Source: Nemertoderma westbladi (lineage: Eukaryota > Animalia > Xenacoelomorpha). From it: a stretch of 64,000 nt of DNA. Where the stretch lies: contig JAUCBJ010000825.1 of assembly GCA_032718475.1 (NCBI GenBank), positions 26,301-90,300 of the forward strand, read 5' to 3'. The position numbers and the translations under genes are program-made. Shown one piece after another: positions 1 to 40,134 of this stretch (within the stretch, counting starts at the first letter, position 1; every line of letters starts with the position of its first letter). Under the pieces are notes generated by a model. That model did not search any database and was not told where the DNA came from. It saw nothing but the letters and a program-made list of their open reading frames with translations.

Positions 1-3000
1 ACAACTAGGTCACATGTGTAGAGGTGGGTCACTAATTAAGGACACCAGTTCTATATTGGGACAACTAGGTCACATGTGTAGAGGTGGGTCACTAATTAAG
101 GACACCAGTTCTATGTTGGGACAACTAGGTCACATGTGTAGAGGTGGGTCACTAATTAAGGACACCAGTTATATGTTGGGACAACTAGGTCACATGTGTA
201 GAGGTGGGTCACTAATTAATGACACCAGTTCTATGTTGGGACAACTAGGTCACATGTCTAAAGGTGGGTCACTAATTAAGGACACCAGTTCTATGTAGAG
301 ACAACTAGGTCACATGTGTAGAGGTGGGTCACTAATTAATGACACCAGTTCTATGTTGGGACAACTAGGTCACATGTGTAGAGGTGGGTCACTAATTAAG
401 GACACCAGTTCTATATTGGGACAACTAGGTCACATGTGTAGAGGTGGGTCACTAATTAAGGACACCAGTTCTATGTTGAGACAACTAGGTCACATGTGTA
501 GAGGTGGGTCACTAATTAAGGACACCAGTTCTATATTGGGACAACTAGGTCACATGTGTAGAGGTGGATCACTAATTAAGGACACCAGTTCTATGTTGGG
601 ACAACTAGGTCACATGTGTAGAGGTGGGTCACTAATTAAGGACACCAGTTCTATGTTGGGACAACTAGGTCACATGTGTAGAGGTGGGTCACTAATTAAG
701 GACACCAGTTCTATGTTGGGACAATTAGGTCACATGTGTAGAGGTGGGTCACTAATTAAGGACACCAGTTCTATGTTGGGACAATTAGGTCACATGTGTA
801 GAGGTGGGTCACTAATTAAGGACACCAGTTCTATGTTGGGACAATTAGGTCACATGTGTAGAGGTGGGTCACTAATTAAGGACACCAGTTCTATGTTGGG
901 ACAACTAGGTCACATGTGTAGAGGTGGGTCACTAATTAAGGACACCAGTTCTATGTTGGGACAACTAGGTCACATGTGTAGAGGTGGGTCACTAATTAAG
1001 GACACCAGTTCTATATTGGGACAACTAGGTCACATGTGTAGAGGTGGGTCACTAATTAAGGACACCAGTTCTATGTTGGGACAACTAGGTCACATGTGTA
1101 GAGGTGGGTCACTAATTAAGGACACCAGTTATATGTTGGGACAACTAGGTCACATGTGTAGAGGTGGGTCACTAATTAATGACACCAGTTCTATGTTGGG
1201 ACAACTAGGTCACATGTCTAAAGGTGGGTCACTAATTAAGGACACCAGTTCTATGTAGAGACAACTAGGTCACATGTGTAGAGGTGGGTCACTAATTAAT
1301 GACACCAGTTCTATGTTGGGACAACTAGGTCACATGTGTAGAGGTGGGTCACTAATTAAGGACACCAGTTCTATATTGGGACAACTAGGTCACATGTGTA
1401 GAGGTGGGTCACTAATTAAGGACACCAGTTCTATGTTGGGACAACTAGGTCACATGTGTAGAGGTGGGTCACTAATTAAGGACACCAGTTCTATATTGGG
1501 ACAACTAGGTCACATGTCTAAAGGTGGGTCACTAATTAAGGACACCAGTTCTATGTAGAGACAACTAGGTCACATGTGTAGAGGTGGGTCACTAATTAAT
1601 GACACCAGTTCTATGTTGGGACAACTAGGTCACATGTGTAGAGGTGGGTCACTAATTAAGGACACCAGTTATATGTTGGGACAACTAGGTCACATGTGTA
1701 GAGGTGGGTCACTAATTAATGACACCAGTTCTATGTTGGGACAACTAGGTCACATGTCTAAAGGTGGGTCACTAATTAAGGACACCAGTTCTATGTAGAG
1801 ACAACTAGGTCACATGTGTAGAGGTGGGTCACTAATTAATGACACCAGTTCTATGTTGGGACAACTAGGTCACATGTGTAGAGGTGGGTCACTAATTAAG
1901 GACACCAGTTCTATATTGGGACAACTAGGTCACATGTGTAGAGGTGGGTCACTAATTAAGGACACCAGTTCTATATTGGGACAACTAGGTCACATGTGTA
2001 GAGGTGGGTCACTAATTAAGGACACCAGTTCTATATTGGGACAAGTAGGTCACATGTGTAGAGGAGGGTCACTAATTAAGGACACCAGTTCTATATTGGG
2101 ACAACTAGGTCACATGTGTAGAGGTGGGTCACTAATTAAGGACACCAGTTCTATATTGGGACAACTAGGTCACATGTGTAGAGGTGGGTCACTAATTAAG
2201 GATACCAGTTCTATATTGGGACAACTAGGTCACATGTGTAGAGGTGGGTCACTAATTAAGGACACCAGTTCTATATTGGGACAACTAGGTCACATGTGTA
2301 GAGGTGGGTCACTAATTAAGGACACCAGTTCTATATTGGGACAACTAGGTCACATGTGTAGAGGTGGGTCACTAATTAAGGACACCAGTTCTATATTGGG
2401 ACAACTAGGTCACATGTGTAGAGGTGGGTCACTAATTAATGACACCAGTTCTATGTTGAGACAACTAGGTCACATGTGTAGAGGTCGGTCACTAATTAAG
2501 GACACCAGTTCTATATTGGGACAACTAGGTCACATGTGTAGAGGTGGGTCACTAATTAAGGACACCAGTTCTATATTGGGACAACTAGGTCACATGTGTA
2601 GAGGTGGGTCACTAATTAAGGACACCAGTTCTATGTTGGGACAACTAGGTTACATGTGTAGAGGTGGGTCACTAATTAAGGACACCAGTTCTATGTTGAG
2701 ACAACTAGGTTACATGTGTAGAGGTGGGTCACTAATTAAGGACACCAGTTCTATGTTGAGACAACTAGGTCACATGTGTAGAGGTGGATCACTAATTAAG
2801 GACACCAGTTCTATGTAGAGACAACTAGGTTACATGTGTAGAGGTGGGTCACTAATTAAGGACACCAGTTCTATGTAGAGACAACTAGGTTACATGTGTA
2901 GAGGTGGGTCACTAATTAAGGACACCAGTTCTATGTTGGGACAACTAGGTTACATGTGTAGAGGTGGGTCACTAATTAAGGACACCAGTTCTATGTAGAG

Positions 3001-3055
3001 ACAACTAGGTTACATGTGTAGAGGCGGGTCACTAATTAAGGACACCAGTTCTATT
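1..3055 (+). repeat. 60-bp minisatellite (~51 units) derived from the 3' end of the upstream CFAP52 exon plus donor AG|GTGGGT
   Basis: Unit reads GGA CAC CAG TTC TAT GTT GGG ACA ACT AGG TCA CAT GTG TAG AG|GTGGGT = GHQFYVGTTRSHV*R, matching the CFAP52 segment GHQFxVGTxxSHIYR that precedes exon 3103. Phase 2 fits that exon. The array start is outside the window. Confidence 0.92.
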
Positions 3056-3102
3056 AGACCCCACTTGTAAAAGCATCCTGTACAAGTTTTCTGTACATTT
3101 AG

Positions 3103-3306
3103 ATTCAACTACGCTGAATTCTCTTACGACATTATGTTCACGGCTCACCACGCTCCTGTCAATGACGTCGCTTTCCCATACGAATGTTCGGATCTTTTTG
3201 CCACCTGCTCCCAAGAAGATATTCGAGTTTGGAACGGGAAAACATCTAAAGAACTCCTCAGGATCACCGTGTCCAATATGACTTGTAACGCCATCGATTT
3301 TATGCG
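3103..3306 (+). CDS. CFAP52: CFAP52/WDR16 WD40 axonemal protein, internal exon
   Basis: tttAG|...ATGCG|GTAAG; translates FNYAEFSYDIMFTAHHAPVNDVAFPYECSDLFATCSQEDIRVWNGKTSKELLRITVSNMTCNAIDFMR, matching recalled CFAP52 motif ELLRITVPNMTC..IDFMR. Confidence 0.93.
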
Positions 3307-3439
3307 GTAAGACATAATCTTTTTAACTAACTAATTATAATTAATAGATAATTGAAATTATTATGTCAAACTTAATAATTGGAATATAATAGATAATTGA
3401 AAGTTATTGTTATGAAAGAATTACAATATTGTGCTTTGG

Positions 3440-3808
3440 CACTAGAACAAAGCCGCCTCCGCTTTACAGGACATTGCTTTCGCCGTGAGGACCAGCCAGT
3501 GCATCATAATCTTGTGCTTTGGCGCCCACATGGAGCGAGTAAGCATGGTGGACAGCACATGACTTTCTTGAGACGCATCTTAAAGGACACTGGCTTTGAA
3601 GATGCCGATAATCTCGCGAAAGTTATGAGGGATAGGGAGTTGTGGCCGTACAACTTTGTTGATAAGCCGGCATAACATTCTTAACGCACGCTGCATTGGG
3701 GAATATTGCCAATTGTAGATTGCATGGTGGTGGCAAAAATATTTTTGTTAAACTGGAATAGCATCACAATGTGCAGCTTCAATGCAGCATGTCGATTGTA
3801 GTAGTAGT
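3440..3808 (+). mobile_element. RTE-clade LINE 3' fragment in intron
   Basis: RLRFTGHCFRREDQP...W..MRDRELW; closely similar to the copy at 15069-16316; ends in a (TAG)n tail; about 90 bp extra in the 3'UTR. Confidence 0.85.
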
Positions 3809-4041
3809 TTAGGAACGCTGCAGTGTCTCAGTGCCGGTCCAATGGGTAGCCTTGGGGTCGTGAACTTGAAACTTTCATCTTCATCTTTCTCATTATCTTA
3901 GAGTTAAGTTATCCTCCTGACTACACGCTGGCCGATACTTAATTAAACTAATTATTAGTTTAAAACAATAGCTAATAAAAATTACTCTTAAACAATATGA
4001 TTATTTTACTTGCTTAACTTACGTAATTGCTGTTCACTTAG

Positions 4042-4210
4042 CGACGGTAAAACTATCGTATCGGCTTGGAATGATGGTAAGGTCCGTGGTTTCTACCCGG
4101 AGACTGGTAACCTAATGTTTATCATACACGACGCCCACACTAAGAGCGTCACTTCCATAGCGACAACCAATGACTGCGCTCGAATAATCTCGGGGGGTGG
4201 AGAAGGACAA
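4042..4210 (+). CDS. CFAP52: CFAP52 exon
   Basis: ttAG|C GAC GGT...GGA CAA|GTTAGT; DGKTIVSAWNDGKVRGFYPETGNLMFIIHDAH...IISGGGEGQ. Confidence 0.95.
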
Positions 4211-4453
4211 GTTAGTTCACTTTAATTAATTAGTTAAATATTAATTGGCCCAGAGTTATGTAAGTAACATGTAAAGCGTAACATGTCGTAGCATTCTATG
4301 ACGCCATTAGCTGTAAAATATCATTCTTAAAAAAATATTAACCGGTTTAAGGCATAATGATATTCATATATTAAATAAAGATGGAAGGATATAGGGTGAA
4401 GCATGTATTCAATTCACTGTTACGGTAATTAATTAGTTTTAATTTTTAATTAG

Positions 4454-4540
4454 GTTCGTGTTTGGGATGTCTCCAACCGAAAGATTCCCAAAATGATTGC
4501 CGCTATGAAGGAACACAACGGAGAAGTTACTTGTATCAAG
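4454..4540 (+). CDS. CFAP52: CFAP52 exon
   Basis: ttAG|GTTCGT...ATCAAG|GTAATT; VRVWDVSNRKIPKMIAAMKEHNGEVTCIK. Confidence 0.93.
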
Positions 4541-4542
4541 GT

Positions 4543-4576
<34 letters not shown>

Positions 4577-7034
4577 CATCAATCAAGGTAATTCAAATAG
4601 GAATAACATTTACTTGTATCAAGGTAATTAAAAAAAAAAAAAAAAAAAAAAAATTCATCAATCAAGGTAATTCAAATAGGAATAACATTTACTTGTATCA
4701 AGGTAATTAAAATAGGAATAACATTTACTTGTATCAAGGTAATTCATATAGGAATAACATTTACTTGTATCAAGGTAATTCAAATAGGAATAACATTTAC
4801 TTGTATCAAGGTAATTCAAATAGGAATAACATTTACTTGTATCAAGGTAATTCAAATAGGAATAACATTTACTTGTATCAAGGTAATTCAAATAGGAATA
4901 ACATTTACTTGTATCAAGGTAATTCAAATAGGAATAACATTTACTTGTATCAAGGTAATTCAAATAGGAATAACATTTACTTGTATCAAGGTAATTCAAA
5001 TAGGAATAACATTTACTTGTATCAAGGTAATTCAAATAGGAATAACATTTACTTGTATCAAGGTAATTCAAATAGGAATAACATTTACTTGTATCAAGGT
5101 AATTCAAATAGGAATAACATTTACTTGTATCAAGGTAATTCAAATAGGAATAACATTTACTTGTATCAAGGTAATTCAAATAGGAATAACATTTACTTGT
5201 ATCAAGGTAATTCAAATAGGAATAACATTTACTTGTATCAAGGTAATTAAAATAGGAATAACATTTACTTGTATCAAGGTAATTCAAATAGGAATAGCAT
5301 TTACTTGTATCAAGGTAATTCAAATAGGAATAACATTTACTTGTATCAAGGTAATTCAAATAGGAATAACATTTACTTGTATCAAGGTAATTCAAATAGG
5401 AATAACATTTACTTGTATCAAGGTAATTCAAATAGGAATAACATTTACTTGTATCAAGGTAATTCAAATAGGAATAACATTTACTTGTATCAAGGTAATT
5501 CAAATAGGAATAACATTTACTTGTATCAAGGTAATTCAAATAGGAATAACATTTACTTGTATCAAGGTAATTCAAATAGGAATAACATTTACTTGTATCA
5601 AGGTAATTCAAATAGGAATAACATTTACTTGTATCAAGGTAATTCAAATAGGAATAACATTTACTTGTATCAAGGTAATTCAAATAGGAATAACATTTAC
5701 TTGTATCAAGGTAATTCAAATAGGAATAACATTTACTTGTATCAAGGTAATTCAAATAGGAATAACATTTACTTGTATCAAGGTAATTCAAATAGGAATA
5801 ACATTTACTTGTATCAAGGTAATTCAAATAGGAATAACATTTACTTGTATCAAGGTAATTCAAATAGGAATAACATTTACTTGTATCAAGGTAATTCAAA
5901 TAGGAATAACATTTACTTGTATCAAGGTAATTCAAATAGGAATAACATTTACTTGTATCAAGGTAATTCAAATAGGAATAACATTTACTTGTATCAAGGT
6001 AATTCAAATAGGAATAACATTTACTTGTATCAAGGTAATTAAAATAGGAATAACATTTACTTGTATCAAGGTAATTCAAATAGGAATAACATTTACTTGT
6101 ATCAAGGTAATTAAAATAGGAATAACATTTACTTGTATCAAGGTAATTCAAATAGGAATAACATTTACTTGTATCAAGGTAATTCAAATAGGAATAACAT
6201 TTACTTGTATCAAGGTAATTAAAATAGGAATAACATTTACTTGTATCAAGGTAATTCAAATAGGAATAACATTTACTTGTATCAAGGTAATTCAAATAGG
6301 AATAACATTTACTTGTATCAAGGTAATTCAAATAGGAATAACATTTACTTGTATCAAGGTAATTCAAATAGGAATAACATTTACTTGTATCAAGGTAATT
6401 CAAATAGGAATAACATTTACTTGTATCAAGGTAATTCAAATAGGAATAACATTTACTTGTATCAAGGTAATTCAAATAGGAATAACATTTACTTGTATCA
6501 AGGTAATTCAAATAGGAATAACATTTACTTGTATCAAGGTAATTCAAATAGGAATAACATTTACTTGTATCAAGGTAATTCAAATAGGAATAACATTTAC
6601 TTGTATCAAGGTAATTCAAATAGGAATAACATTTACTTGTATCAAGGTAATTCAAATAGGAATAACATTTACTTGTATCAAGGTAATTCAAATAGGAATA
6701 ACATTTACTTGTATCAAGGTAATTCAAATAGGAATAACATTTACTTGTATCAAGGTAATTCAAATAGGAATAACATTTACTTGTATCAAGGTAATTCAAA
6801 TAGGAATAACATTTACTTGTATCAAGGTAATTCAAATAGGAATAACATTTACTTGTATCAAGGTAATTCAAATAGGAATAACATTTACTTGTATCAAGGT
6901 AATTCAAATAGGAATAACATTTACTTGTATCAAGGTAATTCAAATAGGAATAACATTTACTTGTATCAAGGTAATTCAAATAGGAATAACATTTACTTGT
7001 ATCAAGGTAATTCAAATAGGAATAACATTTACTT
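4527..7034 (+). repeat. 36-bp minisatellite (~68 units) containing the exon end TTACTTGTATCAAG plus donor GTAATT
   Basis: Unit ttacttgtatcaag|gtaattcaaataggaataacat; first copy overlaps the exon end; two poly(A) tracts near the start. Confidence 0.97.
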
Positions 7035-8194
7035 CCTGGAATGACGTCACTCTATACTGTCCGGTAATAACATCTACTTCCTGGAATGACGTCACTCTAT
7101 ACTGTCCGGTAATAACATCTACTTCCAGGAATGACGTCACTCTATACTGTCCGGTAATAACATCTACTTCCTGGAATGACGTCACTCTATACTGTCCGGT
7201 AATAACATCTACTTCCTGGAATGACGTCACTCTATACTGTCCGGTAATAACATCTACTTCCTGGAATGACGTCACTCTATACTGTCCGGTAATAACATCT
7301 ACTTCCTGGAATGACGTCACTCTATACTGTCCGGTAATAACATCTACTTCCTGGAATGACGTCACTCTATACTGTCCGGTAATAACATCTACTTCCTGGA
7401 ATGACGTCATTCTATACTGTCCGGTAATAACATCTACTTCCTGGAATGACGTCACTCTATACTGTCCGGTAATAACATCTACTTCCTGGAATGACGTCAT
7501 TCTATACTGTCCGGTAATAACATCTACTTCCTGGAATGACGTCACTCTATACTGTCCGGTAATAACATCTACTTCCTGGAATGACGTCACTCTATACTGT
7601 CCGGTAATAACATCTACTTCCTGGAATGACGTCACTCTATACTGTCCGGTAATAACATATACTTCCAGGAATGACGTCACTCTATATTGTCTGGTAATAA
7701 CATCTACTTCCTGGAATGACGTCATTCTATACTGTCCGGTAATAACATCTACTTCCTGGAATGACGTCACTCTATACTGTCCGGTAATAACATCTACTTC
7801 CTGGAATGACGTCACTCTATACTGTCCGGTAATAACATATACTTCCAGGAATGACGTCACTCTATACTGTCTGGTAATAACATCTACTTCCTGGAATGAC
7901 GTCACTCTATACTGTCCGGTAATAACATCTACTTCCTGGAATGACGTCACTCTATACTGTCCGGTAATAACATATACTTCCAGGAATGACGTCACTCTAT
8001 ACTGTCTGGTAATAACATCTACTTCCTGGAATGACGTCATTCTATACTGTCCGGTAATAACATCTACTTCCTGGAATGACGTCACTCTATACTGTCCGGT
8101 AATAACATATACTTCCAGGAATGACGTCACTCTATACTGTCTGGTAATAACATCTACTTCCTGGAATGACGTCACTCTATACTGTCCGGTAATA
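7021..8194 (+). repeat. 45-bp minisatellite (~26 units)
   Basis: Unit aataacatctacttcctggaatgacgtcactctatactgtccggt; shares aataacatYtactt with the abutting 36-bp array. Confidence 0.97.
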
Positions 8195-8226
8195 TTACGC
8201 AGTTCCAACGTATAATTTCTTTACAG

Positions 8227-8370
8227 GTCCGTCGGAATGACTCGGAATGTATTTCAACCTCGACGGACGGAACTACGATTATATGGGATCTCGAGCGATT
8301 CGTCCGATCGCAAATGATTATGGCCAATACATTGTTTCAATGCGTTGCTTACAGACCCGACGAATGTCAG
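8227..8370 (+). CDS. CFAP52: CFAP52 exon
   Basis: ttacAG|GTCCGT...TGTCAG|GTAAGT; VRRNDSECISTSTDGTTIIWDLERFVRSQMIMANTLFQCVAYRPDECQ. Confidence 0.95.
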
Positions 8371-9130
8371 GTAAGTCTTACAGACCCGACGAATGTCAGG
8401 TAAGTCTTACAGACCCGACGAATGTCCGGTAAGTCTTACAGACCCTACGAATGTCAGGTAAGTCTTACAGACCCGACGAAAGTCAGGTAAGTCTTACAGA
8501 CCCGACGAATGTCAGGTAAGTCTTACAGACCCGACGAATGTCAGGTAAGTCTTACAGACCCGACGAATGTCAGGTAAGTCTTACAGACCCGACGAATGTC
8601 CGGTAAGTCTTACAGACCCTACGAATGTCAGGTAAGTCTTACAGACCCGACGAATGTCAGGTAAGTCTTACAGACCCGACGAATGTCAGGTAAGTCTTAC
8701 AGACCCGACGAATGTCAGGTAAGTCTTACAGACCCGACGAATGTCAGGTAAGTCTTACAGACCCGACGAATGTCAGGTAAGTCTTACAGACCCGACGAAT
8801 GTCAGGTAAGTCTTACAGACCCGACGAATGTCAGGTAAGTCTTACAGACCCGACGAATGTCAGGTAAGTCTTACAGACCCGACGAATTTCAGGTGAGTCT
8901 TACAGACCCGACGAATGTCAGGTAAGTCTTACAGACCCGACGAATGTCAGGTAAGTCTTAAAGACCCGACGAATGTCAGGTAAGTCTTACAGACACGACG
9001 AATGTCAGGTAAGTCTTACAGACCCGACGAATGTCAGGTAAGTCTTACAGACCCGACGAATGTCGGGTAAGTCTTACAGACACGACGAATGTCAGGTAAG
9101 TCTTACAGACACGACGAATGTCAGGTAAGT
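8348..9130 (+). repeat. 29-bp minisatellite (~27 units) = last 23 nt of exon + GTAAGT
   Basis: Unit cttacagacccgacgaatgtcag|gtaagt; first copy is the real exon/intron junction. Confidence 0.97.
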
Positions 9131-9358
9131 ATGTGATAAGTAGGATAAGTAAGATAATAATTACTTACTTTTGGGAGGTTGTCAATCAATAATATAATAC
9201 TCAATGTAGTCAATGTTAAATAATACGTTAAATGTTAAGTAATATAGCTCAATTTTTTTAACTAGTATTTTTATTACTATTTATAATAATAATTTTTTTT
9301 TAATTTGGAGACATCATGCCAACCGATAATGTATACGTCATTTATTATCGTTGCCTAG

Positions 9359-9520
9359 GTGATAACTTCTGGAACTGACCGCAAGGTTGGCTACTGGGAA
9401 ACTTACGACGGATCGCAGATCAGAGAGATCGATGGATCTAGAAGTGGAGCCATATTCGGCATGGACATGGCGAGTTCTGGAGATTACTTCATACTGGGAG
9501 GGGCTGACAGATTAGTCAAG
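9359..9520 (+). CDS. CFAP52: CFAP52 exon
   Basis: cctAG|GTGATA...GTCAAG|GTGGGA; VITSGTDRKVGYWETYDGSQIREIDGSRSGAIFGMDMASSGDYFILGGADRLVK. Confidence 0.95.
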
Positions 9521-11648
9521 GTGGGAGACTATTTCATACTGGGAGGGGCTGACAGATTAGTCAAGGTGGGAGACTATTTCATACTGGGAGGGGCTGACAG
9601 ATTAGTCAAGGTGGGAGACTATTTCATACTGGGAGGGGCTGACAGATTAGTCAAGGTGGGAGACTATTTCATACTGGGAGGGGCTGACAGATTAGTCAAG
9701 GTGGGAGACTATTTCATACTGGGAGGGGCTGACAGATTAGTCAAGGTGGGAGACTATTTCATACTGGGAGGGGCTGACAGATTAGTCAAGGTGGGAGACT
9801 ATTTCATACGGGGAGGGGCTGACAGATTAGTCAAGGTGGGAGACTATTTCATACTGGGAGGGGCTGACAGATTAGTCAAGGTGGGAGACTATTTCATACT
9901 GGGAGGGGCTGACAGATTAGTCAAGGTGGGAGACTATTTCATACTGGGAGGGGCTGACAGATTAGTCAAGGTGGGAGACTATTTCATACTGGGAGGGGCT
10001 GACAGATTAGTCAAGGTGGGAGACTATTTCATACTGGGAGGGGCTGACAGATTAGTCAAGGTGGGAGACTATTTCATACTGGGAGGGGCTGACCGATTAG
10101 TCAAGGTGGGAGACTATTTCATACTGGGAGGGGCTGACCGATTAGTCAAGGTGGGAGACTATTTCATACTGGGAGGGGCTGACAGATTAGTCAAGGAGGG
10201 AGACTATTTCATACTGGGAGGGGCTGACAGATTAGTCAAGGTGGGCGACTATTTCATACTGGGAGGGGCTGACAGATTAGTCAAGGTGGGAGACTATTTC
10301 ATACTGGGATGCGCTGAAGGTGGGAGACTATTTCATACTGGGAGGGGCTGACAGATTAGTCAAGGTGGGAGACTATTTCATACTGGGAGGGGCTGACAGA
10401 TTAGTCAAGGTGGGAGACTATTTCATACTGGGATGGGCTGACAGATTGATTAGTCAAGGTGGGAGACTATTTCATACTGGGATGGGCTGACAGATTAGTC
10501 AAGGTGGGAGACTATTTCATACTGGGAGGGGCTGACCGATTAGTCAAGGTGGGAGACTATTTCATACTGGGAGGGGCTGACCGATTAGTCAAGGTGGGAG
10601 ACTATTTCATACTGGGAGGGGCTGACAGATTAGTCAAGGTGGGAGACTATTTCATACTGGGAGGGGCTGACAGATTAGTCAAGGTGGGAGACTATTTCAT
10701 ACTGGGAGGGGCTGACAGATTAGTCAAGGTGGGAGACTATTTCATACTGGGATGCGCTGAAGGTGGGAGACTATTTCATACTGGGAGGGGCTGACAGATT
10801 AGTCAAGGTGGGAGACTATTTCATACTGGGAGGGGCTGACAGATTAGTCAAGGTGGGAGACTATTTCATACTGGGATGGGCTGACAGATTGATTAGTCAA
10901 GGTGGGAGACTATTTCATACTGGGATGGGCTGACAGATTAGTCAAGGTGGGAGACTATTTCATACTGGGAGGGGCTGACCGATTAGTCAAGGTGGGAGAC
11001 TATTTCATACTGGGAGGGGCTGACCGATTAGTCAAGGTGGGAGACTATTTCATACTGGGAGGGGCTGACCGATTAGTCAAGGTGGGAGACTATTTCATAC
11101 TGGGAGGGGCTGACAGATTAGTCAAGGTGGGAGACTATTTCATACTGGGAGGGGCTGACAGATTAGTCAAGGTGGGAGACTATTTCATACTGGGAGGGGC
11201 TGACAGATTAGTCAAGGTGGGAGACTATTTCATACTGGGAGGGGCTGACAGATTAGTCAAGGTGGGAGACTATTTCATACTGGGAGGGGCTGACAGATTG
11301 ATTAGTCAAGGTGGGAGACTATTTCATACTGGGATGCGCTGAAGGTGGGAGACTATTTCATACTGGGAGGGGCTGACAGATTAGTCAAGGTGGGAGACTA
11401 TTTCATACTGGGAGGGGCTGACAGATTAGTCAAGGTGGGAGACTATTTCATACTGGGAGGGGCTGACAGATTAGTCAAGGTGGGCGACTATTTCATACTG
11501 GGAGGGGCTGACAGATTAGTCAAGGTGGGAGACTATTTCATACTGGGTGGGGCTGACAGATTGATTAGTCAAGGTGGGAGACTATTTCATACTGGGATGG
11601 GCTGACAGTAGTCAAGGTGGGCGACTATTTCATACGGGGAGGGGCTGA
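9479..11648 (+). repeat. 45-bp minisatellite (~48 units) = last 42 nt of exon + GTG
   Basis: Unit ggagactatttcatactgggaggggctgacagattagtcaag|gtg, in frame with the exon (VGDYFILGGADRLVK)n. Confidence 0.97.
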
Positions 11649-11740
11649 TTGTAGCATGTTGTAGGCCACCAATAAAAAAGCAGGTTGTTCCATCTGATGC
11701 AAAGGCGCTATTTTATTGGATGTTTCGAGTTGCTTTGTCC

Positions 11741-11815
11741 TAGGACGGTCACTAAGACCGGTCCTAGGACGGTCACTAAGACCGGTCCTAGGACGGCCAC
11801 TAAGGCCGGTCCTAG
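11741..11815. repeat. 24-bp repeat x3, probably in a degraded MITE
   Basis: taggacggtcactaagaccggtcc repeated three times. Confidence 0.7.
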
Positions 11816-12512
11816 CCAGGACACCATTTTATGAATACCACTTAGTCGGTGACTGGACTAGAACCGTGTAAGGACCGACCTAACAAAGTCGGAACCTTAA
11901 TTAAGGACTGGACCTAAAACACTGTCCTAACTCTGGGACCAGACCTAGTTATGGATACCAGGGATGATGTGTCTTATTGAGTGAAATAAACCTGAATAAT
12001 GTCGAGTTGTATTGCTCTTTATATATTTATATAATTATATTCGATTTTAATAAAGTAGCTCTGCATTTCACTCCGGCCGAGTGGTAATATTTCCACGAAC
12101 GAGTGCAAACGAGTGAGTGAAATATAAAACGAGAGCCTGAAAGTGAAATACGCGGTACAGTACAGGTAGCGTATGCTGTACGTAGCCTACAAGCTGAATA
12201 AGTAGGCTTACTAGTGTAGGCAGCGACAGATTGAGTTACTGTTAGGCCTACCTCACCGTCACCGTATAATACGGTACAATCATACTGAAAGAATCATACT
12301 GTTACTTTATTTCTCGTCGTGATATATAACACCCCATAACCTAACATTGAGTTTACTTTCTTTATTTCCGAGCGTATTTCACTCCGAATTGAATATAAAA
12401 CTGATTTATTAATTAGTTTATTACTTTTGTAATTAAACTGCTATGAAACTCGACTATATCGACATTATTTAGCTACTTTTAATCCATCTAACTAATTATA
12501 TTTGACCCGCAG

Positions 12513-12674
12513 TTGTTCAACTATTTCAACGGCAACGTAACCCATGTCGGAGTCGGCCATTCTTCCGAAATAAACAGAGTTAAAGTTTCCCCGGATATGA
12601 AGTACGTCGTTTCTGTTAGCGCCGATGGGGGAATCATTAAATGGAAGTTCCCCAAATTTGAGAGCAGCAGTTAA
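12513..12674 (+). CDS. CFAP52: CFAP52 terminal exon
   Basis: cgcAG|TTGTTC...; LFNYFNGNVTHVGVGHSSEINRVKVSPDMKYVVSVSADGGIIKWKFPKFESSS*, matching the CFAP52 C-terminus VTHVGVGHS...VSVSADG. Confidence 0.95.
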   Translation: MFNYFNGNVTHVGVGHSSEINRVKVSPDMKYVVSVSADGGIIKWKFPKFESSS

Positions 12675-13212: not shown

Positions 13213-15068
13213 ACTCCACGATAGATATACCCATTATTGGTTGGCGTTATCTCCTTTGCCGAAGTCTGGGCTGCAGAAAATATCATTAAGACCATTCGTG
13301 CAAGTGGAGTAGGCCTAGATAGGTAGTGTTCGGATATGAAAATAAATAAGATGGTTTTGGTGAATGTTCCCAAGTAGGGTAACCTGATACTCTATGGATC
13401 TTTTCGTAGAATCTCGGTTACTGTGACACACCCAGACACACCGATATTATAATAGTATAGTCAATAAATGATAATTGTTGCATTCGAATTAAAAGATACA
13501 CAGAACCGTAGCGTAAATGCACTAAAGTTACAATAAGTATAATTATAGTTGAATATAAAGCACAGCGTAATAAGAATAATAAACGCCGTGCCTTGTATTC
13601 TTGTATTCTTGTATATATATTTAGTGATTTAAAATTCACACGGTAGAACTCGTAGAGCACACCAAATTAAGTATATAAACCTAAAAACTACAGTATATCA
13701 AATAATTAAGTACGGGCCTACAGTTGTAAAAATTACGCAAATAAGGCACAAAATGCACATAACTAATAATGAGAAGAAAAAAAACATTATAGTAAAAATA
13801 TACATTGTATACAAATTGTGCAAAAACTGGCTAATTCTTCTGTTTAAATGGACAATTCAATGAAAGAAATGTAGTCCATTTAATTTATTTGAATACTTGT
13901 ACCTTAGTTAGGGAGTTTGACTGGATAGGTCTCGAGTCAGTGTATCCAGGCGAGCCGGGACAATCTGGGACGGTGAAAAGATATGCATCAAGATGCTTTT
14001 TAAAAGTCTCCAGTGCGCAGCCTGTCAAGTCTCTTATATGTTTTGGGATGGTGTTAAATAATTTAGGTCCAATAACACAAAAACTGTTGTCTATAAGAGA
14101 GGAGACGCGACATGTAGCCTTACTTGCAAGGGACGGTATGGTACAAAGTCGACCTCTGCGGATGTTTTTTGTAGATTTAATTTTATAGGTTAAATCTGAA
14201 ATATTTGGAACTCTATTTTCGATAATTTTCCATGTATATATTATTATATACCTTTCTCTCCTCCGCTCGAGCGAATATAACCGTAACATTTTCAAGCGTT
14301 CCCAATAATTTATGTCCTTCATTCCAAACTATGCGGCGGGTGTAGGCCCGTTGTACATTTTCAATTTTTTGGATATCAGCTACAGTAGCTGGGTTCCACA
14401 ACTGGCAGCAATATTCGAGTCTTCGACGGACGAGAGAATTAAAAAGCGTAACCATGGGGATTACATTACGGGTTGTAAATGTCCTTAGTATCCAGCCACA
14501 TAACTGAGATCCGGTTTTACAAATGTTGGTGATATGTAATGAAAAACGCCCTTTATCACTGATGGTCACACCTAGATCTTTAGTTGCATGATCTGAAGTT
14601 ATTATCAAATGGTCGCCAGTAGAATTTATATAAGTGTAGCTATTGTGTGGATGAGATTTGGGTTTGTTGCTGTAGTGCAGATGCTCAAATTTGTCACCAT
14701 GCAGATGCATATTGTTATTTACAGCCCAATCATATATTGTATTCAAATCTCTTTGTAGATTATTGTCATCATTGTTAAGAGATGGAGCAGTTACTCTTGT
14801 GTCGTCAGCAAATGATGATAATTTTATTGTTTGTGTTAGTGTTAATGTCCCCAACCATAATAAGGAACAGTAGGGGTCCAAGTACCGTTCCTTGTGGAAC
14901 CCCGCTAAGGATGGGTTGGGGATGGGAACTGGCACCGTTTATTACAACTTTCTGGGACCGATTTGTTAGGAAGTTTACGAGCCACACTCTCAAACTACCG
15001 CTGATACCAAGTTTTTTTTAATTTTGTGAAGTAAGTTGCCGTGGTCTACCTTGTCAAATGCCTTGGCA

Positions 15069-16316
15069 CTACTACTAGGATCGGCATGCTGCATTGCAGC
15101 TGCATTTATAAGAATGCTGTGCCGGCTTGTCAACAAAATTGCACCGCCACAACTCCCTATCACCCATGACATTTGCTAGATCATCCGCATCTTTAAGGCC
15201 AGTGTCCTTTAAGATGCGTCTCAAGAAAGTCATGGGCTGTCCACCATGCTTATTCACTCCATGAGGCTGCCAAAGTACAAGATTATGCACTGGCTGGTCC
15301 TCACGGCGAAAGCAATGTCCTGCAAAGCGGAGGCGATTTTGTTCTAGTGTCAAGCTTGGGGGAACCAATGAGACACCTCCAATGTTATATAGTGTCTGGT
15401 TGGAGATGTGTGCATTGTACTTGACACAATGTACCCGGCGTAGCATTCTTGTGAATGTGCCATCCAGAGATTTGGTGTCCTCAGCAGTTAGAGCCCAGCA
15501 TGGACTCCCGTAGAGGAGTACTGGAACTACTGCTGCTCTAAATAATCGGACCTTAAGTTTCCGATTAATTCTAGGTGACTTCCAAATCCTGGAAAGCCTA
15601 TTCAAGGCTGCCCATGCCTTTCCCTTACGTATTCGAAGGTCCTCCTCACCTGACTTCCGGATCCATGATCCCAGGTAACAGAAGTCGTCCACATGCTCAA
15701 GCATACCATCCTTTGAGCTTATGCTCATCCGATCAGAGACTTGCTGAGGACTTTCAAAGTTAACTGTCAGAATTTTGGTCTTTCTGGAGTTAATAAAAAG
15801 ACCAACACTAGAAGCAGCATGTTCTAATGAGCTGAGGAGCCGCTGGGCTCCCTCTAATGATTCTGAGAGTACTCCTAAGTCATCAGCAAAGTCTAGATCA
15901 GTTAGGTACTTGGCTGGATTTCCTCGACTTCTGGAGCCAGTAGGTGGAGTTATCATCACCCCATCATCATTATGATGATCTAAGGACATCCGTAGAACAT
16001 AGTCAACCACAATAATGAACAAGAATGGTGCAAGTGTGTCTCCTTGGAGGACGCCCCATAACACTTCAAATGGTTCTGTGTCACCGTCAACAGTAGACAC
16101 AAATGTTGTCGAACCATCGTATACTGATCTGATTGCTGCAATAATTTCATCAGGAATCCCATATAATGAAAGTATGCTGAACATACGTGAGCGAAAGACT
16201 GAATCAAAGGCCTTGAAGAAGTCAACAAAGATAACAGCCAGATGCCTGTCTTTCTTTTTTGATAACTCTTCAATTATCCTTCTAAGTGCCAAAATGGGCT
16301 CCATGGTCCCACGACC
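15069..16316 (-). mobile_element. 5'-truncated RTE-clade LINE inserted in the CR1-group RT
   Basis: ORF with VDFFKAFDS, GVLQGDTLAPFLF, DFADD, LRFAGHCFR; (TAG)n tail; TGGCA duplicated at 15064-15068 and 16317-16321; splits the host YLDFA|KAFD motif. Confidence 0.93.
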
Positions 16317-21530: not shown

Positions 21531-23756
21531 TCAAGGCCAGTTCAGAGTGTTCCTATTGTTGTAGGCAGAATATTCGCACTCAAGGTCCATGAGGGTGTGA
21601 TCCCGCTCCCTAAACTTCGAGTAATTCATCGTCTTACACCGCGACGGAACATCCTGCCAGGCGATGTAATCCGTCAGATTGTATCGGCGGGTTGGATCGA
21701 GTACCGGTAGGAAACGGTCGTAATTCGCACGAAACAACGGAATCGCGTAACCGAAGAGACAGAAGTAGCCCAGGTAGATAGCGCCCGCCGCGCCCAGCCA
21801 CATGGCGCGGCACCTGCGACGCACGCTAGCGGGAGCGTAACGACCAACCGCCGGGTCGCCGCGGAACATTGGGTTGCTGAAGACGCGAGCGAACACCGCG
21901 AAGTTGAGGAAGTAATCGCGGTAAGTCATGTGAACCGAAGGAGGAGGAATTCCTCGGAGGAGCAGCTGTTGGTAGAACATGTTTATATTGAGTTTCGTGT
22001 ACCACCGGAGATACGGTAAGCCAATCAGCAACCCGCCGAAACCGGCGCCGTATTTATCGAGGTCGCGCTTCGTCCAATGCGGGAAGGCGAGAGCAGTGGC
22101 GGCTATACCGACAGTGGGGGCGACGAATGCTGCGACAACGTAGTGACGGAGAACCGTCCGACGGTGGTGCAGACGAATCTGCCGAGAGTTGGTCGCCTCC
22201 GGTTGTGTGAGGGGCACCTTATAGCGGAGAGTCGGTGGGTCGTATGGGTTGAAAGGACGACTCAACCTGTAACGTACACCGGCAGTATTTTAAAAATTAT
22301 AAGTTAGGACAATTCCGACCCATTCAAAAATCTAATTAAATTTTCGTCCGGGTCGGAATTGATCGGGTCGGAATTGTCCGGGTCGGAATTGTCCGGGTCG
22401 GAATTGGCCGGGTCGGAATTGTCCGGGTCGGAATTGTCCGGGTCGGAATTGTCCGGATCGGAATTGTCCGGGTCGGAATTGTCCGGGTCGGAATTGTCCG
22501 GGTCGGAATTGTCCGGGTCGGAATTGTCCGGGTCGGAATTGTCGGGATCGGAATTGTCCTGGTCGGAATTGTCCGGGTCGGAATTGTCCGGGTCGGAATT
22601 GTCCGGGTCGGAATTGTCCGGGTCGGAATTGTCCGGGTCGGAATTGTCCGGGTCGGAATTGTCCGGGTCGGAATTGTCCGGGTCGGAATTGGCCGGGTCG
22701 GAATTGGCCGGGTCGGAATTGTCCGGGTCGGAATTGTCCGGGTCGGAATTGTCCGGATCGGAATTGTCCGGGTCGGAATTGTCCGGGTCGGAATTGTCCG
22801 TACACCTAAAAATTATTGACTCCAAGTGTTCCACTTACACGTCTAGAGTTGGACTTCTGTAGGTTCCGGGATATCTCGGCGTCACCAACTTCCAATCAAT
22901 CATCTGGGAGGCGATACCGTTGACAAATCCGTTGCTATAGAAACGTCTGTATAACCTATTGCATGTCTGCAACATGTGGGTAGACCAATAAACCGCCACG
23001 CAACTACCCAATGGGAGTAACCACTTGGAGTCCCACCAGCTTTTCCTGAATGTAATAAAACGATGTTTCAAACAGTAAGACTAAATTTCTAAGGAACTAC
23101 CCACCACTAACCTAATAATCAACAGTTTCTTAGTTACCGGTACCCGGTAGGCCTACTGTTAATAACTCGTTAGAGTTCTTACTTTATATTATTTATTATT
23201 ATTCAATTAACTGTATCACAATTATCTATTAATTTATTCGAAATACTGTAGATTGATGTTATAAAGTAGCCTAGCATATGCTTTATGACGCCATTCATTT
23301 TAATTATCAGTAAATACCGGTACTTATTAATTAACTGCAGAACTTCCTCATTGAGTTTTTATCGATAAAGATTACTGGATTACATTGATTCATTCATAGC
23401 GCACTATCATAGCGTTTATACGAGACAGAATTACGTAAAGAAGTTACCGGCAGACCGGTACAATACAGATTTCCTGGTTATAACAGTTGTTTTTTTTTTA
23501 TTAGAACCAACTAAACTAACATGCGACGGGTATCCTGCTCAGCTAGGAGAGCGGGCCAAGCGATCTGGTACTCGTGGAGTCTTCCATAGCGGGACACGGA
23601 ATAGGTTGACTCGACACCAGCCGAGTCCATCAACCGCTTAGCATCCTCCGACAGCCCTCCATCCTTCTCCGATCTAACTGTCCGATGGCGGCGGGATTTA
23701 AACATGGAACCCAGTTTCTTTATCACTCCCGGCTCGTTGTCTCCACTCGTTGCCAT
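21531..23756 (-). CDS. 3-exon gene for an uncharacterised ~392-aa protein with predicted membrane segments (exons 23756-23521, 23045-22839, 22266-21531)
   Basis: Canonical sites AT|GTTAGT, ttcAG|G, GT|GTAAGT, tacAG|G; both introns are phase 2 and join three ORFs in frame; hydrophobic stretches such as YVVAAFVAPTVGIAATALAF. Confidence 0.75.
22308..22800. repeat. 15-bp minisatellite (~30 units) in intron, with one inverted copy
   Basis: tccgggtcggaattg array at 22347-22800; inverted gacaattccgaccc at 22308-22321. Confidence 0.93.
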
Positions 23757-26353: not shown

Positions 26354-27594
26354 TGTAAAAGCTTTTGTGGGATGTAACTGGCCCTTTTGCTTTGCAATCC
26401 AGTTCCCCCCCAGGCGCTGGAATACTCTAAAAAGCTCTCTAACTCGAATGATGCAAAGCGACCGGCTGATTGGCTGATTTGTTATACGAGGGGCTCTTTG
26501 CTATGTTCTATCGGCCAACCAGAGCTATAGCAGCAGAGTATGCAACCAGGGCAACCGAGCGGAGTGACTCATTTTGTGTGTTGGCCAAGGGCTGCAAAAA
26601 TCCTGATAGTTCGGCATTTAGATATTCGTGGAACCTGAGGAATCTGGTGTTCTGCCAATGAGAGCTATCCCTCTCTGTGTAAAAAGATACCTGCAACGGT
26701 GTTAGAGTCAGAGAGTTCTTGTTATAGTTGTGTTGTTTCTATCTAGGCCAGGAACACCGGCTCTAGAGTCAATTCGTTTCAGACTTTAGAAGAAACATTA
26801 GTAGGCTTAGATTATAGAATGTATAACTGTTATCAACCTTAACAACTCAATCAGTCTTAACGGCACATATATTGTCATATCATATCTTAACCTACCGTCT
26901 TAATGCTTTTTACTGTTGTTATTATTTTGTATCAGTTGGTTGAATATTATTTGGAGAACACCTATAAAGAACCCAAATTTCCCAATTTTCTTGATACACT
27001 ACAGGTTAGAGAGACAGGTTACATATAGCGATTGCGACTTATATTATTGTGGTTTGTAGTGAATTTAATGCTATTTGATAAGCACTACATGAGTCAATTG
27101 CTGTTCTCTTTATATATGATAAAATTCATTGACAGTCGGCAGATTAGTGTGCAGCATTGTGCGTTACCGGTAGTGTGCATGATTGTGACTGATAACTAAG
27201 CATTTCCTAAAGAATGCGCCTCATACGTGAATCATAAGCCTTCCCGACTTACAGTTGTGTTTAGTATAAGTCATATCTCTGTTTACCTAGATAGAGCGCC
27301 ACGTCCTAAAGGAACTGTTAATATTTCCCGAAAGTGAATAATATTAGTCAGAAATTATTTATTAACGATCAATCGAATAATACAGTAAGCTTACACCGCA
27401 ATAACAATCTAAGCCCTACGAATCCAGTCTCCCGGGTATATCCAGCGGGTGAATGGACGCGCACTAGGCTGGCTTCGGCTAATGTTGTGTTTCTTGGTAT
27501 TAAATACTTGTCATTTTCTAAAGTCTATTTATAAACCAAAAGACATATAAATTTTGGCAGGTTAAACTGCTAAAGGTCTTCAAAAGGGCGTACA
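26354..27594 (+). repeat. 5' LTR
   Basis: About 5 mismatches to the 3' LTR by eye. Confidence 0.97.
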
Positions 27595-27663
27595 ATAACA
27601 GTTATTGTCTTTATTGCAGTAAGCAATAAAGTTAAAAGTACCGGTCGACCGGTAAACCTGAAC

Positions 27664-27808
27664 CGGTACTGTTGTAGGTCCGTAGGCCCAACTGCCAGAA
27701 TCGGTACTGCTGTAGGTCCGTAGGCCCAACTGCCAGAATCGGTACTGCTGTAGGTCCGTAGGCCCAACTGCCAGAATCGGTACTGCTGTAGGTCTGTAGG
27801 CCCAACTG
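27664..27808. repeat. 38-bp tandem repeat x4
   Basis: cggtactgctgtaggtccgtaggcccaactgccagaat. Confidence 0.9.
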
Positions 27809-27818
27809 TCTTAACCGG

Positions 27819-28877
27819 TGTAACAGCGGATTCAGTCCCCCGAAGAATCGGTCCCCCCAGACCAGATCTGCTAGCGGATTTAGTCCCCCCGGACCCAATC
27901 CGCTAGCAGATTTAGTCTCCCTAGGACCAAATCTGCTAGCGGATTGGGTCCTCGTTCGCGGATTTGGTCCCCCCAATGTTATTGCAATAAATTCAAAATA
28001 CACTGCCAGACTGCTCCGTTCCCTTCCTTATTGTCAATGGATACAATACTGGCAGACCGGTTATTCAGTATGTATCGTGTATTGTTCTGGTTAGAAAACA
28101 TTGTGTGTAACCTGGTCCTCTCCAATTTCGTAGTACGATAAATTTATTGTAATGAGGTTATATTGTTTTAACCTTTTTATTATTATAAAATTTATCCTCC
28201 CCATCTGCAAACTATAATAATATGAATGAACATGAATGAATAACTGTTACTCAGTTGGGTTTAGGTGTAACAGCTGAACTGAATATACCTGAATATACCG
28301 AAATGACACCAACTGACCAATGACAAATCCAACCAAATACACCTGACAACTCGAACTACAGTATGATTATTTACTGTAATAGGGACAGTACAATATCTTC
28401 CTCCTCCTCATGTAATCATCCCTCATCCATAATGAATCTATAATGTTGAAATTAGCCGCTTTCCTGAGTATAGTTGCAACTTTGTTGAATTGACTGGATA
28501 TGTGTCATCTCCCGAAATATAATTATAGACGGCTTGATAAAGCTGCGTCTCATCGAAGTTGGCCATAATAGCCTACTGTACTGATGCGACTATATCAGTA
28601 TATACAGATGTGGGAATTTAGTTTAACGCAGTAGTGGTAGCTACTGCAGTTTTAATCAGTCTATAATTTAATGCATAAGCTACGCTGCTATGCCAGTACC
28701 AGTACTGCTGCACTCAGCACTGTCTGACTGTACTGTAAAATTATAATTTAAGGGGGGACTCAATCTGCGGAGGGGGGACAGAATCCGCTAGCGGATTCGG
28801 TCCCCCCGGACTCAATCCGCTAGCGGATTCGGTCCCCCCGGACCATATCCGCGGGGGGGACAGAATCCGCTGTTACA
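27819..28877. mobile_element. Ginger-like MITE
   Basis: TIR TGTAACAGCGGATTC / GAATCCGCTGTTACA; CCGG 4-bp TSD; TGT termini with a 4-bp TSD are typical of Ginger. Confidence 0.8.
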
Positions 28878-29069
28878 CCGGTACTTCCAGTATAAGTACA
28901 TTAGTATTATTCGACTTTGATTATTGTATACCGGTAGGTCTTAGTACTTAATCAGGGAACGGCCGCCCTGGTTTTTTATTGAGATTTTACTTATTTCTGT
29001 CGATTTTATTTACATGTAAGTTAATATTGAGCTGAAGACGTGTAAGTCTGCTCAGATTGTTCAGATAAT

Positions 29070-29645
29070 TGTAGGCTGGACTGTTGTCTGACTGTTGTTG
29101 AGTCTGGAGAGATTGCGGCGTGTGTGGAGTTTGTCCAATAAAGTGCCAGTTAGTAAGTTGGGGCAGCCAGGGCTGTAAGGTCAATCCCCTCTTAAAGAAT
29201 AAGTCGTACTACCGTGTTAGAACGCATACTAACTAACCATTTTGGAATCTGCACATACTGTAGTTTATTTAGGCTTGATAGTAGTCTGCCAGCGTTTTTA
29301 GTCTGTGTTTGTTTGTGTGGTCTGTTCAGGTACCGTAATAGTTATTACTCAGATATTTTGTAGGCTGGATTGTTGTCTAGCTATTATTAGGTCTGAAGAG
29401 ATTGCTGCGTGTGTAGAGTTTGTCTGATAAAGTGCCAGTTAGTAAGTTGGGGCAGCCAGTGCTGTAAGGTCAATCCCCTCTTAAAGAATAAGTCGTACTA
29501 CCGTGTTAGAACGCATACTAACTAACCATTTCGGAATCTGCACATACTGTAGTTTATTTAGGCTTGGTGGTAGTCTGCCAGCGTTTGGTTTGTATTTTGT
29601 TTGAGTATTCTGTACGGGTAGCGTAATATTTATTATTCAGAGTTT
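29070..29645. repeat. ~290-bp tandem duplication in retrotransposon leader
   Basis: tgtaggctgga...taggcttg block at 29070 and 29360. Confidence 0.85.
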
Positions 29646-30933
29646 ATGCGATTATTCGCAACATTCATGTCCCCAAGTTTATTCCTACAGTAATTGTGCT
29701 TGTTACACATACCGTTATAGTTAAATTAACCCCGGTACTACACGGGCTGCTTGGCGTAGGTAAAGACTGGTGACTTTGTGCTCCGGTCACTCCAGCAGAT
29801 GCCGTGGTTCTTTTAACTGTTCAAGTATATTTAACTACTGATTATTTGTTGTACCAGTACTTGTACCTAATTTAGGGTTTAGTGTACAGTACTTTCCGAA
29901 AGTAATTAGTGCGTAGGCAGTGTATTGTGTTGTAAAGTGGTTAATAGGCACGTTGGATCTGGTAGTCCGCGGTAATTAACTTCCAGGTAGGAACACTCCG
30001 TGATACATAACGTAGTACCTATAGCGATACGGCTATAGGTCGTCAGGCGGTGGTATTTTCCTATCTGGACAGTGCAATATATTTACTACTACTTATTATT
30101 TTCAAATACCGTAGTACCCTGTCCATTGTAATAACCAGAATTCTAACCCTTTGTTAGGCTGGTTTGTAGACTTCCTGTAAAATTACCCTAAAAATTTCGT
30201 ACGTAATATTTTGTTGTGTTTAATTAGAGATTTAATCTCACCCGTATCGTAAGTAATTTGTAGTATTAAGTAACTTAGGTAAATTAGAATTATCTGTTTT
30301 AGTGTCCCATAAGTAGCACTTCACTGAGAGCGCACAGCTTCTGTGTAGTGACTTCCCCCAGAAATAATAACATTTATTTCAAATATTGACAAAACCCATT
30401 TTAAACGGGTATATAAATATTATAAATCAACTCAAACGATTTATAAATAATAGGCCTGCCATACAACAACTAGGTCTCAATATCAGTTGGACTACTGCTT
30501 AAATAACGGTAATAAAGTAAGTTAAAGTAACCAAGTAACCCTAAAATATTCAGAAATTCAATCATTCTAAAATAATTGACATACCGGTATTTACCATAGG
30601 CTTATTATATTTATTTCTATAAATTTGGGCTGAAATCATACCGGTATTCTGTAATTAATTCTAGTTCATAATTATACTTATATATACTATAAGTGTAAGC
30701 TGCATACCGGTATTCACGATAGGCCTATTATATATTTATATATATTTGTGCTAAAATTATATACCGGTACTCTGTGACAAACCTAGTTTACAATACTTAT
30801 ATATACTATAAGTGTATACCGGTATTCTAATATACTGCAATAAATTACCGGTACTAGGCCAACGGTCATACTGAATTACTAGACTTGCTTTAACTGTAAC
30901 TATAGCAGTAAGCATTCAACTGTATAACTAAAC

Positions 30934-38815: not shown

Positions 38816-38893
38816 CTGTTTAGAGTATTTACGTATATTAGAAACTGTGATTTTGTATATTTTATAGACTCAAATCCCATTTTCTGGGAGCGG

Positions 38894-40134
38894 TGTAAAA
38901 GCTTTTGTGGGATGTAACTGGCCCTTTTGCTTTGCAATCCAGTTCCCCCCCAGGCGCTGGAATACTCTAAAAAGCTCTCTAACTCGAATGATGCAAAGCG
39001 ACCGGCTGATTGGCTGATTTGTCATACGAGGGGCTCTTTGCTATGTTCTATCGGCCAACCAGAGCTATAGCAGCAGAGTATGCAACCAGGGCAACCGAGC
39101 GGAGTGACTCATTTTGTGTGTTGGCCAAGGGCTGCAAAAATCCTGATAGTTCGGCATTTAGATATTCGTGGAACCTGTGGAATCTGGTGTTCTGCCAATG
39201 AGAGCTATCCCTCTCTGTGTAAAAAGATACCTGCAACGGTGTTAGAGTCAGAGAGTTCTTGTTATAGTTGTGTTGTTTCTATCTAGGCCAGGAACACCGG
39301 CTCTAGAGTCAATTCGTTTCAGACTTTAGAAGAAACATTAGTAGGCTTAGATTATAGAATGTATAACTGTTATCAACCTTAACAACTCAATCAGTCTTAA
39401 CGGCACATATATTGTCATATCATATCTTAACCTACCGTCTTAATGCTTTTTACTGTTGTTATTATTTTGTATCAGTTGGTTGAATATTATTTGGAGAACA
39501 CCTATAAAGAACCCAAATTTCCCAATTTTCTTGATACACTACAGGTTAGAGAGACAGGTTACATATAGCGATTGCGACTTATATTATTGTGGTTTGTAGT
39601 GAATTTAATGCTATTTGATAAGCACTACATGAGTCAATTGCTGTTCTCTTTATATATGATAAAATTCATTGACAGTCGGCAGATTAGTGTGCAGCATTGT
39701 GCGTTACCGGTAGTGTGCATGATTGTGACTGATAACTAAGCATTTCCTAAAGAATGCGCCTCATACGTGAATCATAAGCCTTCCCGACTTACCGTTGTGT
39801 TTAGTATAAGTCATATCTCTGTTTACCTAGATAGAGCGCCACGTCCTAAAGGAACTGTTAATATTTCCCGAAAGTGAATAATATTAGTCAGAAATTATTT
39901 ATTAACGATCAATCGAATAATACAGTAAGCTTACACTGCAATAACAATCTAAGCCCTACGAATCCAGTCTCCCGGGTATATCCAGCGGGTGAATGGACGC
40001 GCACTAGGCTGGCTTCGGCTAATGTTGTGTTTCTTGGTATTAAATACTTGTCATTTTCTAAAGTCTATTTATAAACCAAAAGACATATAAATTTTGGCAG
40101 GTTAAACTGCTAAAGGTCTTCAAAAGCGCGTACA
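38894..40134 (+). repeat. 3' LTR
   Basis: Copy of 26354-27594 at offset 12540. Confidence 0.97.

Follow-up and report, generated by a model that had tools for sequence, protein, structure and literature searches.

Minisatellites across four CFAP52 splice donors in Nemertoderma westbladi, an unusually dense and likely harmless case of a known repeat type

We analyzed a stretch of 64,000 nucleotides from Nemertoderma westbladi (GenBank assembly GCA_032718475.1, contig JAUCBJ010000825.1, positions 26,301 to 90,300 of the forward strand; hereafter the window, numbered from its first letter), which opens within the gene encoding CFAP52. We found that four of the six CFAP52 introns seen carry a large minisatellite derived from a 5' splice site (donor), each unit joining the end of an exon to the first bases of the following intron. 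It is probable, in our judgment, that these arrays are minisatellites of the 'mirage' type, seeded by short duplications that favor exon edges, grown by ordinary minisatellite turnover and tolerated through use of the genuine upstream donor. They are likely harmless and an unusually dense case of a known type of repeat.

Anatomy and reality of the arrays

The arrays were called with Tandem Repeats Finder and parsed unit by unit, which gave five large arrays in the first 11.7 kb of the window, four of them spanning a donor (Table 1). All are arranged head to tail, with periods of 29, 36, 45 and 60 bp and 93-97% matches. An earlier reading of the window, made from the sequence alone, had claimed that the 36-, 29- and 45-bp arrays start inside CFAP52 exons and repeat the last 14, 23 and 42 nt of the exon plus its GT donor. 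The unit parse confirms this, the intron contributing 22, 6 and 3 bases, respectively. Donor positions number 51 in the 60-bp array, 69 in the 36-bp array, 27 in the 29-bp array and 48 in the exon-derived 45-bp array. The GT is kept at 192 of these 195 positions, leaving 189 extra donors once the three genuine in-window donors are subtracted, in agreement with the roughly 190 of the sequence-only reading. That reading had also held the four units to be unrelated and to represent separate events at the same kind of landmark, and when each unit was compared with the window by short-word BLAST, none matched another array, which speaks against a common origin of the four.

The gene itself is intact, as had been claimed: the six exons in the window have AG and GT ends and splice to 308 codons with a terminal stop. 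Together they tile the C-terminal half of CFAP52, as seen in an alignment and with a best solved-structure match at E = 1e-21. Among 131 CFAP52-like proteins the best identities are 65% (sea cucumber and jellyfish), and identity to the Branchiostoma belcheri protein is 62.6%. A tree of 28 rows (27 chosen from the 131 proteins, with most vertebrates left out) places the window protein on a long unresolved branch, outside a supported vertebrate-tunicate clade and apart from the group of the named cnidarians.

The arrays differ in what their extra donors would do to the transcript. In the 29-bp array, 23 of the 27 donors have the full consensus CAG/GTAAGT, giving 22 extra full-consensus donors spaced 29 nt apart. 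In the exon-derived 45-bp array, donors 2-18 are in frame and stop-free until position 10349, and the GT is kept in 16 of these 17. Units 1 and 3 of the 36-bp array (4541-4587 and 4624-4666) are variants containing poly(A) runs of 28 and 24 A, duplicated as a block of 79-83 bp, and they impose a frame shift and a stop on all later donors. We rejected a retro-insertion as the source of this poly(A), which is found on the 5' side of the insert, where target-primed insertion would not put it. Two of the arrays, the 60-bp and the exon-derived 45-bp array, end mid-unit, the last 60-bp copy stopping 15 nt into its exon-derived part. These ends were missing from the sequence-only reading, which had otherwise listed the four donor arrays; so was the fifth array, which shares about 14 nt with the 36-bp unit and has a donor-like GTAATA in every unit. 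The likeness of this fifth array to the next acceptor and exon start, which would make it a decayed acceptor-side mirage, is weak: its score is reached by 30 of 5000 shuffles, by 24 of 400 when the post hoc cut is allowed for, and by 29 of 500 when the whole unit is scored, and a better match exists elsewhere in the window.

To check the arrays in other data, we compared stretches ending in one or two units with sequencing runs that are DNA-like, X1 from sample S1 and X2 and X3 from sample S2; S2 differs from the window by substitutions, and X1 may be the source sample. X1 and X3 contain the 60-bp head-to-tail joint, X1 and X2 tandem 29-bp contigs, and X1 and X3 also the joint that goes back 45 bp in the exon-derived 45-bp array. 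Head-to-tail joints of three of the four arrays thus occur in two samples, and these three are not assembly artefacts, which for them answers the concern raised with the sequence-only reading that the arrays might be absent from the reads. The depth of the 45-bp cycle in X1 is 942/32, or 29 times the unique depth, compared with 31 expected from the window. As regards length variation between alleles, the summed 45-bp depth ratio is about 29 in X1 compared with about 10 in X2, although the depth of a contig is no copy number. That the assembler made the arrays or their lengths is extremely unlikely. In favor of such an origin, no contig or long read in the runs compared spans a whole array, so that the lengths rest on the assembly, the comparison with other runs covered the 60-, 29- and exon-derived 45-bp arrays, and X1 is possibly the source sample. 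Against it stand the joints in S2, with its own substitutions, the fit of the X1 depth ratio to the copy number of the 45-bp array, and the structured patterns of the variants.

Donor choice in a transcript

We read a fourth run, X4 (sample S3), which carried a guessed label of DNA, as RNA, given that it covers exons and skips introns at GT..AG without unique intron stretches. Its contig of 1488 nt (depth 992) skips 3306-4041 and 4211-4453 at GT..AG. In this contig, the 46 bases ahead of the exon that starts at 3103 agree with the 60-bp unit at 45 positions, which bears out the prediction that the 60-bp unit is the end of an upstream exon outside the window, ending in TAY AG. The single mismatch lies at donor position -3, with C in the exon (TAC AG) and G in the copies (TAG AG; TAA AG in 4 of 51). 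As all 51 visible copies lack the exon's C at this position, the decoys are slightly weaker than the genuine donor, which may reflect either drift or selection.

We found that the genuine donor is used at all four array-bearing junctions in this one contig from one sample. Window position 9520 falls at contig position 1056, exactly the sum of the exons when splicing takes the first donor of the 36-bp and of the 29-bp array, and loose ends of X4 join exon 8227-8370 to 9359 and 9520 to 12513. Across the 29- and 45-bp stretch, none of the two X4 records examined contained an array junction. The claim that the first of 27-68 near-identical donors is chosen therefore stands for this contig, with the copy range counted here as 27-69. 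The evidence for use of the most upstream donor is strongest for the exon-derived 45-bp array, which provides the best test of donor choice because its donors 2-18 are in frame and stop-free, such that decay would not hide their use. The locus can be regarded as a natural stress test of donor choice: the assembled transcript skips 22 extra full-consensus donors and 16 that are in frame and stop-free.

These same donors could be taken as a sign that the arrays are selected, with decoy U1 sites that tune splicing or protect the transcript, or with an in-frame 45-bp array that gives isoforms with extra 15-residue repeats, and the presence of three arrays in two samples would agree with this. We consider selection very unlikely: X4 has no contig with an array junction, the copies decay by insertions and deletions (indels) and lost GTs, the 60-bp copies carry a stop as well as the weaker -3 base, and two of the six introns are free of arrays.

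Placement, seeding and growth

To evaluate the placement of the arrays, we collapsed each to one unit and gave the upstream exon a placeholder of 200 nt, resulting in a gene of 3,366 nt with 2,238 intron nt. Under random placement, the probability that at least four of the five arrays span a donor is 6.1e-4 with places limited to introns and donor-spanning sites, 4.0e-4 when acceptors are added and 1.3e-4 when exons are added as well. Calculated from the density of large arrays outside the gene (2 in 47.8 kb), the probability that at least four of the six donors carry an array is 1.6e-10, and 0.012 at 100 times that density. These P values are post hoc, for one gene chosen for this very feature. 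They suggest a bias of the arrays to exon edges within CFAP52. Donors and acceptors compare as 4 to 0, which has a probability of 1/16 under even odds and is not significant.

Alternatively, there may be no positional bias at all, and CFAP52 may be an old minisatellite-rich stretch with short introns, from which exonic duplications were purged and which came to notice as one window, picked from very many because four arrays chanced to lie on donors. This reading draws on the post hoc nature of the finding and on the outside density, which underestimates the local array rate because the DNA outside the gene is largely transposon-derived and partly young (long terminal repeats (LTRs) 99.6% identical); a hundredfold higher rate gives the 0.012 mentioned above. 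We nevertheless hold it to be improbable, since even with five arrays given, and only intronic and donor-spanning places allowed, the probability stays at 6.1e-4, and genes with several boundary arrays recur in the parts of the literature available to us (PGBD5 and Adh3; PMC3902484, PMC3087553).

The sequence-only reading went further and proposed a process that targets donors. The positional bias suggested within the gene agrees with it. Specificity for donors does not follow, given the 4 to 0 count and the description of the published class at both exon boundaries (PMC3087553, as far as its text is available). In a splicing-coupled version, the free 3'-OH of the exon after the first splicing step, or RNA paused past the donor, would re-anneal to the template strand, and DNA synthesis primed or displaced there would copy the exon tail and a few intron bases, the copy becoming fixed as a tandem duplication. 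Both sets of chance values favor this version, as do the three of four units that consist mostly of exon with a short intron head (3-16 nt) and the G skew on the coding strand of the 60-bp (0.23) and 45-bp (0.45) units; in addition, the available text of PMC3087553, from 2010, described the origin of mirages as unclear. It is nonetheless doubtful: acceptor-side mirages exist in print (PMC3087553, same portion), G skew is small in the 36-bp unit (0.11) and nil in the 29-bp unit (0.0), and there is no direct sign of an RNA template, with intron bases in every unit and no unit that joins two exons. A G-rich, R-loop-prone unit was likewise rejected as a common cause, fitting only two of the four units. 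The R-loops, RNA templates and rolling circles invoked in the sequence-only reading are thus not upheld, as strong G skew is confined to two units and the order of variants is that of ordinary block duplication. We think it unlikely that N. westbladi is an animal in which a splicing-tied process seeds duplications of 5' splice sites, with highly transcribed genes swelling their short introns into kilobase ladders of their own donors. If this were true, CFAP52 would be a test locus for the origin of mirages and for the choice of one donor among up to 69 in an invertebrate.

For the mirage-type origin that we prefer, the seed would be a duplication of 29-60 bp across an exon end, born of repair or replication, for example through fill-in at a staggered break or flap slippage. 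The microhomology at the array junctions, 6 nt in the 36-bp array, 2 nt in the 60-bp array, none in the 29-bp array and ambiguous in the 45-bp array, would be compatible with either route (0-6 nt). The bias would be to exon edges rather than to donors as such. CFAP52 might be active in the germ line and break at the nucleosome or transcription-pause boundaries of its short exons, which would produce this bias. Growth would then have proceeded by ordinary minisatellite turnover. In the 60-bp array, a block of variants ABEFCDA occurs twice and its part EFCDA a third time, and in the exon-derived 45-bp array a block CAAEFBB occurs twice; variants accumulate at the 3' ends of the arrays, accompanied by internal deletions and by copies that decay through indels and lost GTs. 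The block duplications and the pile-up of variants at the 3' end fit unequal exchange or slippage. The arrays would have survived as neutral passengers, with the exon copy intact and the upstream donor in use.

The copies also show concerted evolution from which the boundary unit is left out. The exon copy differs from the array at two sites in the 45-bp array and at one in the 60-bp array, where the exon comes from another sample. In the exon-derived 45-bp array, two synonymous sites near the 5' edge set the exon-side edge apart from every copy, which would be expected of an exon under selection and an edge that escapes homogenization.

Several observations weigh against this interpretation. 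The exon-edge bias is drawn from a single gene picked for the feature, and all four arrays lie on donors and none on acceptors, an outcome with a chance of only 1 in 16 if both kinds of exon edge are equally favored. Two arrays end mid-unit, such that duplication followed by unequal exchange needs a later deletion; such ends would result from later deletions or from arrays that formed at a break end. No array-free allele or relative was found, and the ancestral introns are reconstructed rather than seen; a metagenome search for the locus of a close relative gave 5 loci out of 324 candidates, at only 40-55% identity. Finally, the transcript is that of S3, a sample in which the arrays themselves are unseen, contigs drop rare isoforms, and later-donor use in the 60-, 36- and 29-bp arrays leads to a stop or frameshift that decay could hide.

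Four independent arrays in one gene give good reason to suspect mutational hot spots for short duplications at exon edges, and their density makes a genome-wide test of enrichment at splice sites worthwhile. In practical terms, introns become up to about 40-fold longer through arrays of this kind, which can also mislead assembly and gene-prediction programs.

Table 1. CFAP52 exons and large tandem arrays in the first part of the window.
Feature	Position	Strand	Remarks
60-bp minisatellite, at least 51 copies	1-3054	+	Starts before the window; last 44-46 nt of upstream CFAP52 exon + 14-16 intron nt
CFAP52 exon	3103-3306	+	Following intron array-free, contains a high-copy interspersed repeat
CFAP52 exon	4042-4210	+	Following 243-nt intron array-free
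CFAP52 exon	4454-4540	+	Final 14 nt are the start of the 36-bp array
36-bp minisatellite, 69 donor positions	4527-7034	+	14 exon nt + 22 intron nt; 6-nt microhomology at ends
Fifth array, 45 bp x 26	7021-8194	+	Same intron as the 36-bp array, overlaps its end; not shown to be exon-derived
CFAP52 exon	8227-8370	+	Final 23 nt are the start of the 29-bp array
29-bp minisatellite, 27 copies	8348-9130	+	23 exon nt + 6 intron nt; no microhomology
CFAP52 exon	9359-9520	+	Final 42 nt are the start of the exon-derived 45-bp array
Exon-derived 45-bp minisatellite, 48 donor positions	9479-11648	+	42 exon nt + 3 intron nt; last copy partial
CFAP52 last coding exon	12513-12674	+	Ends in TAA

Other features of the window touch the gene or lie downstream of it. 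The interspersed repeat in the array-free intron (3436-3808) has a very high copy number and is 88% like the 3' end of a reverse transcriptase element at 15109-15353. At position 4445, in the pyrimidine tract ahead of the acceptor at 4453, the window has T and both X1 and X2 have G, which reflects either an allele or a consensus error. Downstream, a 44-bp x 69 array (41460-44513) lies where no splice site was seen nearby and serves as a control within the window, indicating that large arrays also arise elsewhere. Its first unit continues what we take, from its motifs, to be the end of the coding region for the C terminus of a LINE reverse transcriptase, with a weak tblastn match (E = 0.016) to the reverse transcriptase tail at 13888-14328 and no Pfam match; the array ends mid-unit and the element is not resumed. 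A 15-bp x 30 array (22307-22800), with one inverted unit copy at 22307-22321, adjoins a 252-codon open reading frame (ORF) without a Pfam match on the minus strand (21531-22289). An LTR retroelement (26354-40135; LTRs of 1242 bp, 99.6% identical) contains a 934-codon ORF with DUF1759 and a protease-like ORF; none of the ORFs listed encodes an intact reverse transcriptase, and three small unassigned ORFs lie at 37204-38815. At 54009-55617, exon-like cassettes are duplicated with their flanking introns at 76-79% identity, two of about 100 nt with donor-like ends and three proline-rich ones with acceptor-like starts. They lie upstream of a 1119-codon ORF with an OTU domain (56157-59516), possibly as part of a large intron-carrying transposon.

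Comparison with known boundary-spanning repeats

The presence of several arrays in one gene has a precedent in the lancelet gene Adh3, most of whose minisatellites reportedly belong to the boundary-spanning class, in work attributed to Canestro et al. in 2002. The lancelet mirage minisatellites, as described in the available portions of the reports, occur at both exon boundaries, with normal splicing, length instability and an origin called unclear (PMC3087553). In the lancelet globin genes BflGb6 and BflGb9 the boundary units are excluded from homogenization (PMC3087553), mirages also occur in troponin C and in PGBD5, the latter with 60- and 108-bp repeats (PMC3902484), and Adh3 has units of 10-72 bp with reported somatic instability (via citing papers, PMC3087553). 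The CFAP52 arrays resemble these in that units of tens of bases span an exon-intron boundary, the splice signal is duplicated and splicing is undisturbed in the one transcript contig seen, as well as in their concerted evolution with boundary units excluded and in having more than one type of unit per gene. They differ from BflGb6 (3-6 copies) in having 27-69 copies, and from the lancelet mirages in occupying four of six introns, all at the donor side.

In humans, minisatellites whose first unit spans a boundary are described, in the part of PMC1557585 available, for F7 IVS7 (37 bp x 5-9), 6-16 intron 2, CBS IVS13, LMNB2 and PDGF intron 4. The most upstream donor of F7 is used, as shown by mutagenesis, and F7, LMNB2 and PDGF use only this donor, whereas 6-16 and CBS also use the next two pseudo-sites (PMC1557585, same portion). 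CFAP52 shares with these exon-spanning variable number tandem repeats a first unit that crosses the boundary, a donor repeated downstream and use of the most upstream donor. It differs in having four arrays, compared with one array per gene as described and 5-26 copies in humans, where the setting was mammalian cells, and, unlike in 6-16 and CBS, use of the next pseudo-sites is not seen at the contig level.

For the seeding step, small tandem duplications from break fill-in by CST and Pol alpha-primase, followed by end joining, are established, according to the abstract of PMC8355091. Such fill-in would explain how an initial short duplication with little microhomology, like that proposed here, could arise; exon edges and growth to dozens of copies do not appear in that abstract. 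We found no published genome-wide test of array enrichment at splice sites and no link to R-loops in a search that left the subscription literature mostly outside. In summary, both the class of repeat and the rule that the first donor is used are already in print, and what stands out in CFAP52 is the density of the arrays.

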